Origin: Massalongia carnosa
Taxonomy: Eukaryota
Length of the DNA stretch: 64,000 nucleotides
Assembly: GCA_965645245.1 (NCBI GenBank)
Contig: OZ287069.1
Coordinates: forward strand, 744,001-808,000
Direction of reading: 5' to 3'
Each line of letters opens with the position of its first letter. The first letter of the stretch is position 1. Under the pieces are notes generated by a model, which saw only the letters and a list, made by a program, of their open reading frames with translations, was not told the origin of the DNA and did no database searches. The translations under genes and the position numbers were made by a program. Shown here piece by piece: positions 18,087 to 27,645 of this stretch.

Positions 18087-20609
18087 TCAGGCGCTCATAC
18101 TCTCATACCCAGTACCGTTTGATCCGTCAGAAAGCCTTCGTTTAGCGTTGTCCATTGCCAATTTCTGCGCTGGAGCTATGGGAACTGTCTCTTGCATTTG
18201 ATATTCGAGCTTGGTATCCTCTGATGCCAATGCGGCCCCCCATTTGTTCAACCTTGACTTGATATAGCGTAGACAAGCTTCAAACACTCCGCTCTTCGGA
18301 TCCTTCTCAAGCGTCGATAGCAATCGGCATGCAGCGGCAAATCCTAGTAAGCTCACATCATTTATGTTGATGTCAACAGAAGTAAGGAGGTCCACCGCAT
18401 TAGCCATAGCTACTAGCTCGCTATTTAATGAACCTAGGGTAGCAGCGCACTGAACAGCAAATCTGACGTCCTTCCGGATACGTTCGGGGATGGATGAGTC
18501 GAAAAATACAGACGCGGTTGCCCGAGACGAAACGCTGCTAGTGCTAGATAATGGGAAGCGAGATAGGTCTTGCGAAAGTTTAGCGATATTAGCCTCACGA
18601 TCAGTCTCCAAGAATATAGCCTTTGCAGCTAAAGCTCGAGTGTATGCGCTAAATGCAGGAGGTGCGACTTGAAGAGCAAACTCCAAGTTCCTTTCGTCGC
18701 AGGGACCGAGCATTGCACCATGCTGGTACCAGTCGAGCAGTGCCTGGTGAAGAGAGAGACTTGATGCCCATGCTGCCAGGGCATCCAGAGGAGACCGGAT
18801 GGCATAATCCTCTACGATAATATCAGTTCCAAGATCTTCGCCTTTGGTATCCTCACGAGTCGGTCTATTCCAGGCTAATTGTAGGCGCGCTGCACAAGGA
18901 GATCAGTAAAAAGCTCATCAGAATCAAGCTGCAGGAGAGCGGTTAGATGCTGCAGTAAAGACTCTCTGTCGTCAGGCAAGAAGGAAACTATAGGCTTTGA
19001 CAGCCGATGCATTTCCTGTGCCTGCAACCACTGATGACGTGCAAGTCGAGCAGCGGCTTTGTGCAGCATGCACCAGATACTCTAACCTGATTTTGATGCC
19101 TCCCATAGTAGAATTCGAATGTGTAATGCCTTCAACATGAGCCGGGTTGGTGTGCTTGGTAGAGTTCCAGAAGCAAAGATAGTTAGCACAAGTCTGCTCT
19201 TGCTAACTTCAGAATCACCTCCGGTAAGTTGGGCATCAATAGCGATATCCCAGGCCCTAACTCTTGCAACCTCGTCCTCCTCGGTCTGATTCAATAGCCA
19301 TGCAAAACTCGACCAGCCGATGAACTGTCTCCCAATGTACCTCATAGCCTCCAGGTGCAGTGCTATAAGTTCAGGAAACATTCTGTGCCTTGGAAACCCA
19401 ACTGTTTGGATCGCTGTCAGCCATGCTTTTCGACGAACCTCGATTGGTGACGCTAATGATGGAGCTGCTGCAAGCATACTGTCTTTGCAACTTGTGGATG
19501 ATTTTGGCTTGGAACTGAAAAGGTACAGAAAAATTGCATATGCCAGTAACGAAAATACTAGGAGAATCTTTACCAAAAATGTGAAGGGAATTCCAGGAGT
19601 AAAAATGTTCCCCTTTAAACTCCTAATGGCATTTGCCACATTCAAAGTCGGCGGAGTAGATAGCGCAAAAAGACCTCGACCATCTGGATGGTCTCCATTT
19701 CCCCCTCTTTCACCAAAACCTTCCATAACTAGTAGTCCGGCTAAAGATCCTAGCATGAGCCTACCAAAAAGCTTACTGCGCCCAACCCCATGTTCTTTTG
19801 GGGATATTGAATCAGTCGAGTTAATATGTAACTGACCGTTATTATAAAGGTCTCCAGCGTAATGCTCATGGGGAATAGACGCTCGAAGAGCTTTCATGGC
19901 ATCGGGGACGCGAATCATTCCTTCGAGGTGAGTGGCAGCACGTGGAGAGTTGATTGTTGTAAGCAGGGTGTTTTCTGCTTGCTTTGATGATACTTCATCT
20001 GTTCGATCTTGCAACACCTTTCTTATAGCTCTTCCCGCTTCTCTGATGTTTTTCGAGAGCGGCGTACAACTTCGAAGATTGGCATTCTCCTCCTCTAAAC
20101 AAAGCGTTGCGGGTTTCAAGATATTGAATGTACTCAATAGCTTTTGTCATAATGGTGGCCTTATTGAGTTTAAAGGCGACCGATAGCCCTCCGAGATTAG
20201 CAGGCTCCTGGTAGTCACTGCGTAGACTTGGTACGCTCTCTCGCAGTGCAGCAATTTTCTCGTTTAAGTTCGTGCGATAACGCCGCTCGATCATAGTATG
20301 GCTTCGATTCGTTGTGGGTGGCTCTGTTGAATAGCGAATCTCCTTAGTAGATTCTTGATTTGTTCCAAGTGACAACTTTCGCTTCTTAGATGGTCCTTGA
20401 ACCTCGACAAACTCTGGCGGTAAGCGGTCTGAGATGCTTCTGGCCCTGCTAGTTAAAACAGAACCTTGCTTCGTGTATGTCTTACAAGGGGAATGTAATG
20501 ACTGCTGAGGGGCGAGCGCCTCAGCTGCTCCGTCCCATTCTTCGTTGGAAACCGGGCTTTCTCCGAACTTTGAGGCGAGAGCTGCTCCTAAGGGAACTAT
20601 CTGCTCCAT
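18087..20609 (-). pseudogene. srbA: SREBP (SrbA/Sre1-like) bHLH transcription factor, disrupted as assembled
   Basis: bHLH HTMIERRYRTNLNEKIAALRESVPSLR with the SREBP-specific Tyr, two transmembrane segments and a DUF2014-type C-terminus (AWDIAIDAQLTGGD..SKSRLVLT). Split by a +1 frameshift (~20100), an in-frame TAG (19082-19084) and a -1 frameshift (~18877). Confidence 0.8.
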
Positions 20610-20778
20610 TATCCAAAAGATGTGCGAATCAAAGCGTCAAAGACCAGATACGCACATCAATTGCGTGCGAGGAATAATTGAGATGGTTCTATGTCACGTG
20701 AGGCCCCTGAGTCAAAGTAAATTAAGAATCACCCTCTGAAAATTCTTTCCTCATCCACTTCTTCTCACTCGGCCTCAT

Positions 20779-20924
20779 CCATCTCACTGACTCGTCGTCG
20801 ACCCCACGTTGTCTCGGTGCCCCTACCTCGCTGTCAGTGCTTGCTGCTTTTCCCATCTCACTGACTCGTCGTCGACCTCACGTTGTCCTCGGTGCCCCTA
20901 CCTCGCTGTCGGTGCTTTTTCCCA
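20779..20924 (+). repeat. Tandem duplication (period 74 bp, two copies) in the retroelement 5' leader
   Basis: ccatctcactgactcgtcgtcgacc.cacgttgtc..ggtgcccctacctcgctgtc.gtgctt at 20779 and 20853; ends immediately before the gag ATG. Confidence 0.95.
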
Positions 20925-21938
20925 ATGACGAACACCCGTTCCCAAAGCACCCCGATGGACGACATAGTCCCCGACTCCCAGGAGATTGTCGGATTGACGC
21001 AGGCCCAGTCCAATCAAATCTTCGCCCTACAAAAGAAGAAAGCCGAGGCAGAAGCGAAGGCGGCCGAGGCTGAGGCCAGAATTGCCGAGTCCAAGGCATT
21101 GGTCGCCGAGAAGGAGGTGGAAAAAATGCAGCTAGAAATCGACTGCATGCGCCGAGAATCTGACGCCCGAATAGCGGCCGTCATTCCTGCTGGCAAGCCG
21201 AGTCGTGTCGTCGGCGATGACGACGAGGACCTAGGTGAGATCCCTCTCGAAGTAAGAAGTATAGCACCCCGTTTCGCGGGCCTACCACAGGACGAGATCA
21301 TCAAGATCTTTTCAAATAAATTCAAAGCCATCAACCTCTCCCGCCTCCGACACATGCACGGCATGCAATACGAGTCCTACAAGGATCAGGACCGCATCGG
21401 CATCGAAGACGGCGCCTTGAGGTTGAGAAAGGCATCCGGGACCTACAAAGATTTCGGAAAGACAGTTCATGACGTCTGGACCGAGAGCTTCATCAACTAC
21501 ACCTCGATCATGGTCAGTCTTTTCGGGAAATCGAGTCAACAGCTTCACGCCACCATGTCGGCATTCCACGGAAAAATCCTCACGCTGGCCAAGGTGTACG
21601 AGTGGCAGGAAGCAGTCCTCCCCCTCGCCATCGAAACCCACACTCACATCATCGCGTCTCAGCCATCCGACGCATCCCAATGGAAAATGCCCGACGAATT
21701 CCAAGCTCGATTCTGCACCCCCCTCACAGTCCTACGCCGTCGCCGCTCACGATCCCCGCCGTCCCGGCGACCGACCCCGAGAGGAGACAGGGCCGATAGG
21801 GCCGAGAAGGCAGCGGGGGAAATCTGCGACAAGTACAACAGCGGCACCTGCACCTGGCCGTCGTGCTACCGACAGCACAAATGTAAATCGTGCGGCGCGG
21901 CTGGGCATGGCCAGAAGACATGCCCAACGAAGAAATAG
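20925..21938 (+). CDS. Gag-like protein of the YR retrotransposon
   Basis: ATG at 20925, N-terminal coiled coil (KKKAEAEAKAAEAEARIAE), C-terminal zinc fingers CDKYNSGTCTWPSCYRQH and CKSCGAAGHGQKTC, ends TAG. Confidence 0.85.
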   Translation: MTNTRSQSTPMDDIVPDSQEIVGLTQAQSNQIFALQKKKAEAEAKAAEAEARIAESKALVAEKEVEKMQLEIDCMRRESDARIAAVIPAGKPSRVVGDDDEDLGEIPLEVRSIAPRFAGLPQDEIIKIFSNKFKAINLSRLRHMHGMQYESYKDQDRIGIEDGALRLRKASGTYKDFGKTVHDVWTESFINYTSIMVSLFGKSSQQLHATMSAFHGKILTLAKVYEWQEAVLPLAIETHTHIIASQPSDASQWKMPDEFQARFCTPLTVLRRRRSRSPPSRRPTPRGDRADRAEKAAGEICDKYNSGTCTWPSCYRQHKCKSCGAAGHGQKTCPTKK

Positions 21939-21983
21939 GGGGTTGGTGCAGGAGGCAGTAGAATAGCTTCAATAGCTGAATTC

Positions 21984-23691
21984 ATGACGTCCCATCCCTG
22001 CTTACCTGCACCAATCAGACCAAATACAATCCCTTCGTTTCAACTCGTAGACGCATCTCGTCAGCGTTTGAAAGACAGCCCATCTCCCCTCGTACCGTCC
22101 GCATGGGCAACTCTACTTCAAGAGTATCCGGGCCCCCTCCGAGTCCATCTGCCCATGATCCTTCGTTTCGGAGTACAAATCGGATACGAAGGCCCCACAG
22201 ACATCCTTCGGATCGAAAAAAATCTGACATCAGCGAATGAGGACCCGGAAACGATCGAGAATAAGCTCCAAGAGGACCTCAGGAAGGGCCGAGTCAGACG
22301 AATAGCCGCCCCGAGTCAGCCATTTGTGGCCTCCCCCCTCGGCTTGGTCCCGAAACATGACGGAGGATGGCGACGCATTCATCATCTGTCTCATCCCAAT
22401 CAAACATCAGTCAACGACAACATTCCAGAAGAGGCATCCAAATTACAATACGCCAGACTCGACGACATTATTCAATTGATTCTGTCAGCGGGCAAAGGTG
22501 CTGTCATAGTGAAAAGAGACGTCAAAGACGCCTTTCGAAACGTTCCCGTCGCACCTCATCATCAATGGCTTCTGGGTTTCGGATGGAATGACGAATTCTA
22601 CACCGAGACATGCCTTTCGTTCGGACTGTCGACGGCCCCGTTCATCTTCAATCTTTTTGCGGAAGGCTTTCATTGGATTTTGGAATCCTTTCTACAATGG
22701 AGATTACATCACTATCTAGACGACTTCGTTGCAATTTTCCCATCCGAGACATCGTCAGAACGATTGCACCAAGAAACAAAAGCCTACAACATTCTCACCG
22801 ACATTCTTGGCATCCCGAGAAACGACTCAAAAGACGCCGAGGGAACGACAGCGACAGTCTTCGGACTCGAGGTCGACACCATCAACAGTCTTATTCGTCT
22901 GCCAGCGGACAAGCTGGAAAAAGCGAGAATCATCACTACAAAGGCACTAAACGAGACGACAATCAGCCTCGGCGACATGCAGTCAATAGCGGGCTTCCTA
23001 AGCTTCTGCGCACAGGCAGTCAAATTGGGCCGAGTCTTCTTACGATTATTCTGGAATTTTATAGCCTCATTTCCCTCGGGCAGTCATCGTCGGGTCAAAA
23101 GAAGAATTCCCACATGGGTCAGACAGGATCTCATCTGGTGGAACAAACTTCTAGTGGACTTCAACGGTATTGTCTTCTTCGAGACGTCAACACGAGACAC
23201 GATCAAGGTGCATACGGATGCATGCCTCACGGGTCTCGGAGGCTATTTTCAACAAGACAACGAGCTCGTGAATCAAAAAAAAAAACGCATGTAGGGCCCG
23301 AGTCCTAGTCCTCAATCAGGAAGGATCACCGAGCATAAACGTCCGAGAAGTCGAAGCTATCCTTCTAATCCTTCAGAAATGGGCGCCGACATGGCGACAT
23401 CGACAGATCCTTGTCTTTACCGACAGCAACACAGCATACACAGGATTCACGAATCTAACCCTCAAGGGACCGGCCAACGCGCCTCTACGAGAAATACTGT
23501 CCATAGCTGCAAAGTGGGACATCGTACTACGTTGTCAATGGATCAGTGGCACTTCCAATGGACTAGCAGATGCCCTGTCACGTTTTGATGATGAAAGATT
23601 GGCTAACTTTTGCCCTCATTGGCAGAACCCATACAATTCGATGAACCTCCCTCCACCTACCTATCCTCCACACCAGGGTCAGCCCTGGTAA
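21984..23691 (+). CDS. Reverse transcriptase-RNase H (Pol), with a one-base frame break in an A11 run at 23275-23285
   Basis: SPLGLVPKHDGGWRRIHHLS, KRDVKDAFR, LSFGLSTAP, HYLDDF, then RNase H VHTDAC. It continues in the +1 frame as INVREVEAI..VFTDSN..WISGTSNGLADALSR to TAA 23689-23691. Confidence 0.9.
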
Positions 23692-24773
23692 AACGTCTCG
23701 TCTGGCACGGACACTCGGCGGACACGAGAAAAGGGTACGGGACGGCGATCGACTCATACGAGGCATTCTGCGCGACGACGGGACGCACGTCGTGGCCTGC
23801 AACAACCGAGTCCCTCGAGGAATGGCTAGCCGGTCGACTATACGGGGGCGGCACACCCAAGCAGGGAAAGATAAAACCAGAGACGGCAGCGAGCTACCTC
23901 GCCGGCCTCAGATCATACCATGTAGACCGAGGATACGGCCTCACCCCATTCGAGGGGCCGAGACTTCAATTGATGCTGAAAGGGGGAAAAAGGATCTTTT
24001 CTCAGACAAAAAGAAGACGCCTACCCATTTCAAAAGAATTACTGACAAAAATCACCAGTATTCCCGCTCATTCGGCCGAAGACCTCAACATCGACGCGAC
24101 ATTCAAAGTTGCATGGGCAGGGTTCCTCAGACTCGGGGAAATCACCTACACTGTCGCCGATCGTAAGAAGACATCTTTTCAGAGATTGAAACCTACACGA
24201 GGTGACATCTCATTCGCCGAGAACGATCAATACGCGACATTACGTCTCAAAAGAAGCAAAACAGACACAAATCACTCAGGAGTTCAGATAGTGCTGGCAG
24301 CGACCAATGAGAGCACTTGCCCCGTGACAGCACTACGGCGTCTTTTCAGAAATGATCCTCAGCCATCTACATCCCCGCTTTTTCGTCTCGGCACCGCATT
24401 CACCAGAGCCTCCGTCATAGCATCCCTGAAAAAGAGACTGATAGCCGTCGGCATCAACGACTCGGCATACTCGGGACACAGCTTCAGAAAAGGAGCAGCA
24501 CAACACGCCGCCGACCACGGGATGCTGGATGAGAGTATTCAGAGACTCGGAAGATGGTCATCAAACGCGTTTCAGCTATACTTTCAGACGTCCCAGGCCT
24601 CACTATTCAATTTGAACCTCAGTTTTCAAAAAGGCATCCCTCTAGCAGTCCCACGTGCTGTCGTCGCCGAGACGAATCCTACAAACTCCTACCCCTACTC
24701 AATTGGGCATTCCATTGGGCGTACAGGTCAACCAGGGCATCGATCCGGAGCGCCGCCGGGCACCTCCATCTAG
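23610..24773 (+). CDS. Tyrosine recombinase (phage-integrase family) of the retroelement
   Basis: Catalytic motifs GFLRLGE (R), LKRSKTD (K), SGHSFRKGAA (HxxR), LGRW and FQLY (Y). No ATG upstream of the N-terminal domain; the ORF-track start is TTG. Confidence 0.92.
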   Translation: MPSLAEPIQFDEPPSTYLSSTPGSALVKRLVWHGHSADTRKGYGTAIDSYEAFCATTGRTSWPATTESLEEWLAGRLYGGGTPKQGKIKPETAASYLAGLRSYHVDRGYGLTPFEGPRLQLMLKGGKRIFSQTKRRRLPISKELLTKITSIPAHSAEDLNIDATFKVAWAGFLRLGEITYTVADRKKTSFQRLKPTRGDISFAENDQYATLRLKRSKTDTNHSGVQIVLAATNESTCPVTALRRLFRNDPQPSTSPLFRLGTAFTRASVIASLKKRLIAVGINDSAYSGHSFRKGAAQHAADHGMLDESIQRLGRWSSNAFQLYFQTSQASLFNLNLSFQKGIPLAVPRAVVAETNPTNSYPYSIGHSIGRTGQPGHRSGAPPGTSI

Positions 24774-24931
24774 ATCATCGCCGTCGGGCACTGCCGTCGG
24801 GCATCATCTATCGGATCGTTGAGCGTCAGCAGACGCCTCGGGCCTAGAAGATGAGGTTCTCACCTCAGCACCGACCCCGAGTCACGTGCCTAGGCCTGCC
24901 CGGGCTGACCTGTGTCGTTCCCATGCCCAAT
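24702..24931 (+). other. Predicted multibranched secondary structure at the retroelement 3' end
   Basis: Nested complementary segments read by hand: 24702-24710/24923-24931, 24717-24739/24897-24920, 24741-24747/24812-24818, 24823-24827/24832-24836, 24841-24847/24890-24896, 24852-24857/24862-24867, 24868-24871/24886-24889. Confidence 0.7.
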
Positions 24932-25306
24932 CAAATTCAAGCATTCAAATCAATTCATCCAATTAAAAGCCCCCCCAGCGCAAGCGAAGGTAACGGCACC
25001 GATAAGGGTCATAGAACGTAGCGTTATTGACTAATGCAGGAGACACTCTTCATTACACCCCATCTTTAATATTCTTCATATACCTCTAGTAGTCGAAAGA
25101 AATGTCCTTGAAACTGCGAGGTTCATACTTCAGCAATTTACCCTTCTTTCAAATCCCACTCTGATAAAGTATCTGTAGATATATGTTGACTCTCATAATC
25201 CGCAGCAGGTGATCCAAGGCCCAACATTAAATCGAGTTACGTACCTCAAATTAGATGGTTTTTAGGTGTAGAGATGTATCGAAACATCAACCTCGACATT
25301 CCTGGG

Positions 25307-27645
25307 CTAATTCCATTTCTCGTCCAAGTCTGGTCTTTTCCTTACTAAGACCTCCCCCACTGGGTCACCCTTTCCTTTCAAAACCTCCCATTGCCCAATT
25401 CCCAATTCTTTCGGCGCCTTTTTGACGCCTCGACCCCCACCGCCAATGATCAGATTACCTGGCCTGTAGGTTTCGTCCGCTTCCATACGTCTGATGGCGG
25501 AGTTATGAATCTTAGCGTTGTGGGGAATATCTCTCGGCTCGCCCATCGGTAGTCTACACAGCGTGGCGTTTCAGGGTCAGCTAGCATACTTGAAAGGTGT
25601 GATCATAGCCTCTGGTCAAGATCAGCAGAGGCTCTCCACTTACGGGAAGGTAATAGCCCGCCAGGAGCCATCAGGTTGGAGATCCATTCTACGGAAAGGT
25701 AAATATTCCATCGTCTTCCAGGAGAGGACTGACATCGCTGGCAGTCCGTTTTTAAATTCCAGACAGTCGTGGAGCATCCCTTTAGTTGCCGACTTGTACA
25801 TGCATCTGTGGAATTCGGATTGCTTTGGCTCTTCGGGCTTCATTCCAGGTGCCCATCCTGGTTGTGGGGTTTCGGACTTAGGGCTTTCGTAGATGTTGGG
25901 GTTAGAAGAGCTCGTAACCTGAACTTCTGGGATCCCGGGATCCCGTGCTCGGGTCGATTCATAGGAATCAGACCAATCGTTGTATTTGTCATCGCAGCAT
26001 TTGAGCCGGATCATCTTTTCACGATCAAAGTCAAGGCCTGCTCTTTGAGCTTCTCTTACCATCCACACCAAAGGTGCATGGCTCAGAGCGAATTCCTCAT
26101 TTGTGGATAAAGGCCATCCTCCACCCAAGTCCGCATGACATCCGGGGAACCAAAGTTCCTCAATATCTTGCTCGGCGGCCTCATCGGCATCGGCTTCATC
26201 CTCCAGGGGCCTTGGAGGTGCGATAGAAAGTTGTGAGGTGTCAGAGTTGATGGAAGACGCATCTCCATCTTCCCCGTATGCTAGACTCAACGTTCTCTCT
26301 CGACTCTTCGCTGGAGAGCTCTGACGAGGCGCCAGCCGGCCTTCTTCATCTGGAACACTCAATCGAGAGTTGAGCGGTTTGTTTTTTTCCGGAGTAGGCC
26401 GAGCCTGGCTTGGTCTACGAAAGCGATCAGTAGTGCTGGTAGCATTTCCACGGTCTGGGGTTCGACCGCCATTTCTCTGGTGCTGTTCCTGGTTTCCATC
26501 CTGATGGTGCTTATGATGGTGACGATGAGTCTTGGTCGGTTTCGATTCTCCAAGCAAATCTTGTCGGAATTTCGCTCTGCGCTCGTCGATGCTCACAGCA
26601 TGCCGGATCACCCGTGCTGAGCTCCTCACGCTATATGGAAATTTGCTCCTCTGCATCCAGGCATTTTCAAATCGAGGAACGCTGTTGACTGATCTGACGG
26701 TTAGGTGGACCTGGTGCTACGAAAGAACATGGCATACCAGTATCAAAAAGCCCTATGAATCGAATTCTCCTAACAGGGCGAGAAAATGTATCACCTTTAG
26801 GTATCAGATTAGTCTTTTAAGTTGATGCAGTGGCCTTGAAAGATGCTTACGGAACGCCTGCATGAAAGTAAACATAGTCTTTTTCTTCTTCGCTTCCTCT
26901 TCCGTTCCGTCTTGTCTTTCCTGCCACTGAGAGAAAGCCTTCCACGCAAATCTCGCCATTTCTTCATTTCCGGCGCTGAGCAAACCGACATGATCCAGCA
27001 TCTCTGCCAGAAACCGCGCTACATAAGCACCTCGGCTGAATCCAAATAAAAAGATATCATCATCGTGGTAAGTCGCCATCAAAAATTTATACGCTGTTCC
27101 TTGCTCAGCTCAAGGGCTTCCCCAACTCTCGATCGCGGCATCATACCTCCCATCACATGTTCATCTAAAGATGTTCCGACGGCCGAATCTTTGGCTTTCT
27201 GATACCATGAGTTGAATCGTGCGGCCACACTCGTGTGGGAGATGGACCTTGTGTTAACGTAGGTCCCAATGCCCGGCTGTAAGAATGAGATGCAATGCTG
27301 GTCAATAAAGCGTCATTATATTTACCTGGTAGTAATGCTTATCGAAGCCGTTGTTTCTATCTAGCATTCGATATATCTTTAGTATATTGCTATCCGCATC
27401 GGTCCCTATTCAACTGTTTAGAACCGCTCCATAATGTTTGTTTTTTTATACAAGATCGCTAATACCTTGGAACTTGTTGCCTGTCCCATCGAAGCAGAGA
27501 ATAATCTTTATCACTGGATCAGTCTTTGCTCGCGATGAAACCCGTCCTGTGACCGATATACCTTTTTGCGAGGGCGAAACGGCCCATAAGCTTGGTTCGT
27601 TGCCCCTCCCCCAAGGTTCTCATGGCTCTCGCGTTGGGCTTGCAT
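25307..27645 (-). CDS. DUF2235 (Tle1-like alpha/beta hydrolase) protein
   Basis: Multi-exon: RPRKK / IILCFDGTGNKF, IFLFGFSRGAYVARFLAEML, RHAVSIDERRAKF, ELWFPGCHADLGGG, IHNSAIRRM. Confidence 0.88.

Follow-up and report, generated by a model that had tools for sequence, protein, structure and literature searches.

The stretch of DNA analysed here (the window) comprises 64,000 nucleotides (nt) of Massalongia carnosa, contig OZ287069.1, positions 744,001-808,000 of the forward strand, and all coordinates given below are positions in this window. It harbours a fungal tyrosine recombinase (YR) retrotransposon with the gene order gag, reverse transcriptase (RT)/ribonuclease H (RNase H), YR. By its domain content the element is Ngaro-like, while its membership in this group is incomplete with respect to the split direct repeats. 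In this element gag and pol are separated by one in-frame stop codon that is followed almost immediately by a long predicted RNA stem, and since dozens of distantly related elements share this stop arrangement, Pol is likely to be made by ribosomes that read through the stop. The junction is composed of the following features:

20865..21938, plus strand: gag open reading frame (ORF), delimited from stop to stop (start 20865); a TTG lies at 20883 and the first ATG near 20925 (counted by hand).
21936..21938, plus strand: gag stop codon TAG, the proposed readthrough site, located between AAG AAA and a G (21939).
21939..21983, plus strand: spacer of 15 codons (GVGAGGSRIASIAEF), open in the gag/pol frame up to the ATG at 21984.
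21939..23294, plus strand: reverse transcriptase and start of RNase H, in the gag frame; the ORF is cut short by a frameshift here.
21941..21958, plus strand: 5' arm of the stem, GGTTGGTGCAGG plus AGGCAG, starting 2 nt past the stop.
21984..21986, plus strand: ATG within the stem loop, used as Pol start by gene callers (protein P0001) and not conserved in relatives.
21998..22016, plus strand: 3' arm of the stem, CTGCTT, a bulged A and CCTGCACCAATC, on the codons of the Pol motif C-L-P-A-P-I.

The gag ORF (20865/20883..21938) and the RT ORF (21939/21984..23294) lie in one frame (starts 0 mod 3), and the stop with its following bases reads TAG GGG GTT. This agrees with the initial annotation of the window, according to which gag ends in AAA TAG and the next 45 nt are open in frame into the RT ORF at 21984. 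The same annotation had described a stem of about 18 base pairs (bp) with one bulge and two G-U pairs, located 2 nt past the UAG, and pairing by hand as well as RNAfold arrive at this structure. GGTTGGTGCAGG (21941-21952) pairs with CCTGCACCAATC (22005-22016) over 12 bp with one G-U pair, AGGCAG (21953-21958) pairs with CTGCTT (21998-22003) over 6 bp with one further G-U pair (both checked by hand), and A22004 forms the bulge, giving a whole stem of 18 bp with two G-U pairs whose 3' arm directly precedes the codons of a conserved RPNT motif of Pol. The 18-bp stem is both the minimum-energy and the centroid structure of 21936-22025 (RNAfold, -34.5 kcal/mol, z -4.20), none of 200 dinucleotide shuffles of this segment was as stable as the native sequence and the stem is retained when folded in a 221-nt context; the minimum-energy fold of the spacer contains 20 closing pairs. 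When 1776 windows of the element were compared as duplex partners of the 3' arm, the 33 nt past the stop came out first. Due to its z-score, the shuffles and this rank, the stem exceeds what is expected by chance. No Rfam covariance model matched at E <= 1 between 20600 and 25700 on either strand. As a side observation, the stem loop (21967-21992) can pair with 22049-22073 (-20.6 kcal/mol, z -3.5), which constitutes a candidate pseudoknot found in the window only.

Near-identical copies of the element were found in other datasets. Contigs of four other runs from four studies cover 21725-22136, and no differences are listed between 21884 and 22112. These contigs are ~99% identical to the window element (about 1-1.4% divergence), and two of the four copies with intact TAG and arms also have an uninterrupted RNase H frame. 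As the stop is unchanged in the contigs of four other studies, it is not confined to the window copy. Nine runs (seven organism codes, seven studies) contain at least half of the words sampled from 21400-22600. The ~99% identity of the four compared runs indicates that the element is either young or shared among closely related hosts.

To collect distant relatives, 40 aligned RT proteins served as query against metagenome contigs, which yielded 79 loci with 36-55% RT identity, and gag was located with a hidden Markov model (HMM) that was built from 36 long upstream ORFs and searched against all plus-strand ORFs. Together with the window's own junction this gave 80 junctions, 16 of which were left out as they ran into the contig end or had no gag found, so that 64 were assessed. 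The gag ORF ends exactly at a single in-frame stop before Pol in 48 of these; gag and pol share the frame with more than one stop in eight, most of them also with stops inside gag, and lie in different frames in the other eight. A second, independent scan of prokaryote genome bins (contigs of metagenome-assembled genomes, MAGs) returned six fungal contigs with four assessable junctions, all of which carry the single stop, and it is also present in both second junctions of two contigs with head-to-tail copies. In total, one frame with exactly one stop was found in 54 of 70 assessable junctions (binomial test of 52/68 against one-third, p about 4e-13, relatedness ignored), and a gag-pol fusion without a stop in none of the 70. 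The 48 single-stop loci form 37 clusters at 80% identity. In 66 of 86 loci pol is followed by a YR homologue in the same orientation, so that the relatives represent the same kind of element. The initial annotation had considered that relatives might carry a sense codon at this site or vary in frame between gag and pol; no sense codon was found there in the 70 junctions, and the shared frame with exactly one stop prevails. It had also regarded overlapping frames as usual, which does not apply to the relatives of the window element, where the single in-frame stop is the rule.

Two of the contigs (L011:1-5333 and L075:1-4320) continue past pol and YR with another gag ORF and a second gag-stop-pol junction. 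A difference of one residue distinguishes this junction in L011 from the contig start, which suggests that both contigs represent head-to-tail tandem copies rather than a circular assembly artefact. Fungal-type retrotransposon contigs (L080-L085) are filed in MAGs labelled Kribbellaceae, Solirubrobacteraceae and Bacteroidetes, and their presence in bacterial bins is probably due to eukaryotic contamination.

The stop is kept among the relatives while its identity switches. Sister elements carry TAA (L001) and TAG (L002), TAA (L013) and TAG (L012, L015), TAA (L054) and TGA (L063), TGA (L005) and TAG (L009) or TAA (L044) and TGA (L057). TGA is the commonest gag stop (19 of 37 clusters), and the base following the stop is C in 27 clusters, G in eight, T in two and A in none. 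TGA CTA occurs in seven clusters, TAG CAA in five (with TAG CAATTA in L009) and TGA CGG in one, and adenines occupy both positions -2 and -1 before the stop in 13 of the 37 clusters. In the accessible part of a survey of readthrough, type I signals are defined by UAG-CAAUYA, type II signals by UGA-CGG or UGA-CUA and type III signals by UAG-G with a downstream structure, and adenines at -1 and -2 are described to promote readthrough (PMC4615788). 'UGA CU' was reported as core readthrough element in fungi, again according to the portion of the paper available (PMC4207609). Judged by their bases, the stop contexts of the relatives match these three known classes and the upstream-adenine effect. 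The view of the initial annotation that the stem acts as readthrough signal gains support insofar as the stem recurs, but it is only one of three signal types among the relatives, and those with TAG-CAA-TTx or TGA-CTA/CGG show no comparable stem.

For each locus, the first 33 nt past the stop were folded against 39 nt around the codons of C-x-P-A-P-x-RPNT. Strong duplexes (-27 to -34 kcal/mol) were obtained only with a G after the stop, namely in the window, L016, L027, L006/L007 and L023, while duplexes of CAA-type and CTA-type loci ranged from -2 to -12. The duplex rank of the post-stop segment among the windows of its own element was:

Window element: 0 of 1776 windows.
L016: 0 of 1510.
L006: 0 of 1119.
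L008: 0 of 942.
L023: 0 of 1820.
L081: 0 of 1488.
L027: 14 of 869.
L009 (CAA type): 1209 of 1499.
L022 (CAA type): 1079 of 1099.

In CAA-type loci the post-stop segment thus ranks near or below the median. Spacer folds place the start of the spacer-closing helix 0-2 nt past the stop in the window, L016, L027, L006/L008, L023/L081 and L004, L007 also has an equivalent closing stem, and 7-27 closing pairs were counted in ten stop-G loci versus 0-19 in 20 others (Mann-Whitney test, p 1.3e-4, relatedness ignored). Despite different arm sequences, pairing is maintained from lineage to lineage. Past P-A-P, the 3' strand reads AAUC in the window, CACCC in L016, GCUC in L027 and CCCCC in L006, the matching 5' strand reads GGUU, GGGUG, GA-GU and GGGGG, respectively, and the inner helix is formed by AGGCAG/CUGCUU in the window and by GAUAC/GUGUU in L016. 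The stop-G class requires five changes on the RT tree, and sisters of stem lineages carry CAA or CGG contexts (L017 beside L006-8, L003 beside L004). A stem next to the stop, with differing arms that pair, therefore recurs in several lineages, which the initial annotation had treated as a question on which its proposal depends. All statements on pairing refer to folds of individual sequences. In a MAFFT alignment of five junctions (A2) the 3' arms are aligned, the 5' arms of L006 and L008 are misaligned and the outer helix of L016 shows a 2-nt slip; with helices displaced in this way, a column-wise pair count on this alignment would mislead.

Programmed readthrough of the gag UAG resulting in a Gag-Pol fusion is in our view the best reading of these data and a reasonably probable one. 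At the UAG (21936-21938), a minority of ribosomes would accept a near-cognate tRNA rather than terminate, and Pol would be made only as a Gag-Pol fusion. The signal would consist of UAG-G, preceded by AAG AAA, and of a stem of 18-20 bp that starts 2 nt past the stop and closes off the spacer in full; the codons of the conserved Pol motif C-x-P-A-P make up the 3' arm of this stem. If the mRNA channel of the ribosome covers about 5-7 nt beyond the A-site codon, then with the UAG in the A site the helix starting at +3 would presumably lose its lowest few pairs and some 12-15 bp would be left at the mRNA entry channel, which would place the helix where the readthrough-stimulating structures of retroviruses act. 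We infer ribosomal readthrough as the bypass and the stem as its stimulator, and the proposal of the initial annotation that Pol is made as a Gag-Pol readthrough fusion gains support from the conserved single stop, the leaky contexts and the recurrent stem. A wider proposal appears about evenly balanced, namely that this entire family of fungal YR elements expresses Pol only by readthrough, that its lineages have swapped among all three classical signals and that, in the class with the helix, RNA signal and Pol motif constrain each other.

Several points weigh against programmed readthrough or against the stem as its stimulator. The mechanism is deduced from comparative data. The arrangement is not found in 16 of the 70 junctions, some of which look decayed, and the group of L025/L026/L033/L034 may use another arrangement. 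An annotated protein, P0020 (and also P0024), runs from gag into pol without a stop, as seen at the level of the protein sequence. The unchanged 81-nt signal in the near-identical copies is uninformative, as only ~1 change is expected at ~1.4% divergence. The comparison of stems covers about seven lineages, the helices are not strictly homologous by column (in L023 the 3' arm is shifted downstream by two codons, and in L036 the pairing involves a different partner), L036 and L030 fit the stem pattern poorly, and weaker closing stems are present also in L003 (TGA CGG) and L005 (TGA CAA). The window stem starts 2 nt past the stop, compared with a spacing of ~8 nt in murine leukemia virus (MuLV). 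An equivalent of the loop-to-downstream pairing of the window was not seen in L016, L027, L006 and L023 (z -0.65 to +1.38). Two further points, the ATG of the window and the behaviour of the Candida element Tca2, are weighed in the following.

Pol could alternatively be translated separately from the ATG at 21984, through reinitiation after gag, through a subgenomic RNA or internal promoter of the kind proposed for Tca2, or through internal ribosome entry. The stop would then be a true terminator and the stem would regulate access to the ATG. This ATG lies only 15 codons past the stop and inside the stem loop, gene callers start the P0001 protein of 567 amino acids there, and most loci of a long-spacer clade have a Met somewhere in the spacer. 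A precedent is given by Tca2 of Candida albicans, an element with a gag-UGA-pol junction, a predicted pseudoknot and Pol made from gag-pol RNA; according to the accessible part of the report, its junction failed to drive readthrough when tested with a reporter in yeast, where it showed minor activity as an internal promoter (PMC2194720). However, the ATG of the window is not conserved. In 20 of the 48 single-stop loci, among them the stem-bearing L016, L004 and L036, the first in-frame Met lies beyond the RPNT motif and often far inside RT, e.g., at residue 182 versus 31 for RPNT in L003, 192 versus 39 in L016 and 439 versus 22 in L030. The last spacer residues of the window, IAEF, which precede Met21984, align with a conserved L-x-x-F of the relatives' Pol N-termini (alignment A1, columns ~240-250), and spacers of up to 151 codons remain open. 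Because of the missing early Met, the conserved L-x-x-F upstream of the ATG and the long open spacers, a separate conserved AUG start for Pol is unlikely for the family, though the window element itself could still use its ATG. Furthermore, a separate start would need neither these open spacers nor a shared frame with exactly one stop, and it would not favour leaky stop contexts. Separate translation of Pol is thus regarded as improbable.

The stop might also be removed in the RNA, either by A-to-I editing of UAG to UGG or by splicing of a small intron across the stop. A-to-I editing occurs in the sexual stage of some filamentous ascomycetes, and UAG is a favourable editing triplet in fungi, which counts for editing. 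With regard to splicing, gene models in Penicillium, Pleurotus and Tricholomella (P0137, P0139, P0141, P0148, P0149), known as proteins only, join gag to pol. As all or part of the zinc-knuckle/stop segment is missing from these NCBI models, they probably contain an intron that was predicted in order to get past the in-frame stop. The joined models are predictions, and the 19 long gag-pol proteins found stand against 425 homologues of normal length. Editing is difficult to reconcile with stops that switch among TAA, TAG and TGA between sister elements: in TGA, the commonest stop, the editable A follows a G, and TAA would need two edits. Neither editing nor splicing would favour CAA-TTx or CTA past the stop or a C at +4 in 27 of 37 clusters with A never occurring, and the window UAG is located just 5' of the stem and not in a hairpin loop. 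Removal of the stop in the RNA is therefore considered quite unlikely.

Another explanation accepts readthrough and assigns the stem to a different function, such as packaging, dimerisation or a step of reverse transcription, or regards it as a by-product of a G-rich linker opposite the C-rich P-A-P codons. The stem's position only 2 nt past the stop, closer than the classical spacing, and the weaker closing stems of L003 and L005 would suit this, as would the wide variation of registers and loop lengths (15 to 112 nt enclosed). An unrelated function would hardly explain why the stem always starts 0-2 nt past the stop, and the stem is concentrated in loci without a leaky hexamer. As UAG-G alone terminates efficiently in yeast, the stop-G class would need a stimulator. 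Readthrough with a stem that has no part in stimulating it is considered quite unlikely as well.

A chance nonsense mutation in a decaying copy with a coincidental stem, to which the damage elsewhere in the window copy (an A-run 4 nt longer, a frameshift inside RNase H) might point, was rejected, the TAG and arms being unchanged in four studies, the single stop being present in 54 of 70 junctions of relatives and the stem having a z of -4.2.

Beyond the junction the element comprises the following features:

23272..23691, plus strand: remainder of RNase H, in the +1 frame in the window copy.
23275..23285, plus strand: A-run of 11 A's inside RNase H, 4 letters shorter in the X7 and X9 contigs.
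23607..24773, plus strand: tyrosine recombinase ORF containing FLRLGEI (box I Arg), HSFRKG and LGRWSSNAFQLY, the last of which includes the catalytic Tyr.

The C-terminus of gag contains a C-x2-C-x4-H-x4-C zinc knuckle (CKSCGAAGHGQKTC), followed by PTKK and the TAG. The window gag matches the HMM of the relatives' gag at positions 59-385 of 394 (E 3e-91), no Pfam family was matched by the gag ORF and its nearest Atlas clusters are fungal hypothetical proteins. The RT ORF of 451 codons matches RVT_1 of Pfam (E 1.4e-12, 48.2 bits versus a cut-off of 29.6), and has 425 homologues at E <= 1e-10. Named homologues come from Penicillium, Fusarium, Lyophyllum, Pleurotus and Tricholomella. The RVT_3 match is weak and below the Pfam cut-off (E 0.003). 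The RNase H part aligns with the RNase H of 39 homologues, two of which carry PF17917, and this family is found in seven of the 120 homologous proteins listed; RT and RNase H are of the Ty3/gypsy-related type. The shorter A-run of X7 and X9 gives the uninterrupted RT-RNase H protein P0001, which reads NQKNACRARV at this site. As the A-run of the window is 4 letters longer, its copy is frameshifted inside RNase H, and this is either a genuinely frameshifted copy or a homopolymer error of the assembly.

The YR ORF matches Phage_integrase below the Pfam cut-off (E 0.0054) and possesses the R..H-x-x-R..Y residues of a tyrosine recombinase in place of a DDE integrase. An integrase or protease family was not found by Pfam in the four ORFs scanned, and the Pfam scan gave no methyltransferase family. 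A methyltransferase domain would not fit in either, as the intact RT-RNase H protein extends only ~40 residues past RNase H and its end is overlapped by the YR ORF. The first ~113 codons of the YR ORF contain no ATG (read from the translation). Its first 85 nt (23607-23691) are shared with the end of pol, and compared with the intact pol frame it is in frame -1. Because of the lack of an early ATG, the overlap and the -1 frame, expression of YR may need a second recoding or RNA-processing event; no slippery heptamer was obvious by eye at the pol/YR overlap.

Split direct repeats (A1 ... B1 A2 B2) were not found in this copy, and long direct or inverted repeats neither between 20500-21000 and 24600-25800 nor within 19500-27000. 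Host-like ORFs flank the element on the minus strand at 19995-20636, with an apparent basic helix-loop-helix segment (RRYRTNLNEKIAALRESVP) as judged by eye, and at 25640-26716; due to these flanking ORFs the insertion is bounded to about 20640-25640. Upstream of gag a tandem duplication (20779-20917) consists of two units of 64-65 nt that are ~95% alike and start 74-75 nt apart. The X7 and X8 contigs lack 1 and 17 letters at 20887 and 20903, which means that the duplication region varies between copies. By self-comparison, no second copy of the element was found within the window.

If the wider proposal on the family is correct, no recoding signal would have been described for YR retrotransposons before, and fungi would provide a natural series of elements with short-context and structured signals replacing one another. 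With a conserved readthrough site, YR retrotransposons would possess a defined translational control point, and programmed readthrough would extend from retroviruses and a few LTR (long terminal repeat) elements to a third retroelement order. Gag-pol readthrough has long been known in gammaretroviruses and was proposed for some LTR retrotransposons. What is of interest here is how broad the family is and that three signal types interchange within it. For termination studies in filamentous fungi, the relatives would offer dozens of natural short-context and structure-assisted variants. For annotation, it is of relevance that callers start Pol at a non-conserved ATG or predict introns over the stop, and several public fungal models look affected.

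The Ngaro pattern consists of gag-like, RT/RNase H and YR ORFs without a methyltransferase domain, as described in the accessible part of PMC3783388. The window element fits this ORF set, and the absence of the methyltransferase separates Ngaro from DIRS1 and PAT. As far as the available parts extend, the Ngaro and DIRS literature describes overlapping or frameshifted ORFs and does not mention a gag stop or readthrough (PMC3783388, PMC8547959, PMC3266345), nor does it state how the Gag:Pol ratio of YR retrotransposons is set. No description of readthrough in YR retrotransposons was found in the partly accessible literature searched (including a survey of fungal DIRS/Ngaro elements, PMC3783388, an overview of DIRS1, PMC3266345, a paper on Ngaro in Cafeteria, PMC8547959, and a review of recoding, PMC5009743), a search that did not extend to the founding Ngaro papers. 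Contexts present in relatives and not in the window element are the UGA CU(A G) of peroxisomal isoforms and the tobacco mosaic virus (TMV)-type UAG CAA UYA, both as given in the accessible parts of the sources (PMC4207609; PMC4615788).

MuLV and the window element have in common that gag and pol share one frame with UAG-G between them and a stable RNA structure on the 3' side. The MuLV signal is a pseudoknot ~8 nt past the stop, whereas the window element has a long stem-loop 2 nt past the stop that closes the spacer. With reference to type III signals, the element thus possesses UAG-G and a stable 3' structure that is conserved in relatives, and it shows no MuLV-like pseudoknot at ~8 nt. Unlike MuLV, it is a YR retrotransposon in which no protease or integrase was found. 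Extended 3' stem-loops that stimulate readthrough were reportedly described by Firth and colleagues in 2011 for alphaviruses, coltiviruses and some plant viruses. These viral stems and those of the window family are similar in that a long recurrent stem-loop follows the leaky stop, with arms in coding sequence and a loop of variable length. In contrast, the viral stems occur mainly with UGA-CGG or UGA-CUA, while here the strongest stems accompany stop-G, as far as can be told from sequence. Tca2, which is a Ty1/copia-type LTR element, and the window element are both fungal retroelements in which gag and pol are separated by an in-frame stop that is followed by a predicted structure on its 3' side. 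Tca2 is a single element, whereas for the window element the comparison extends to family-wide data.

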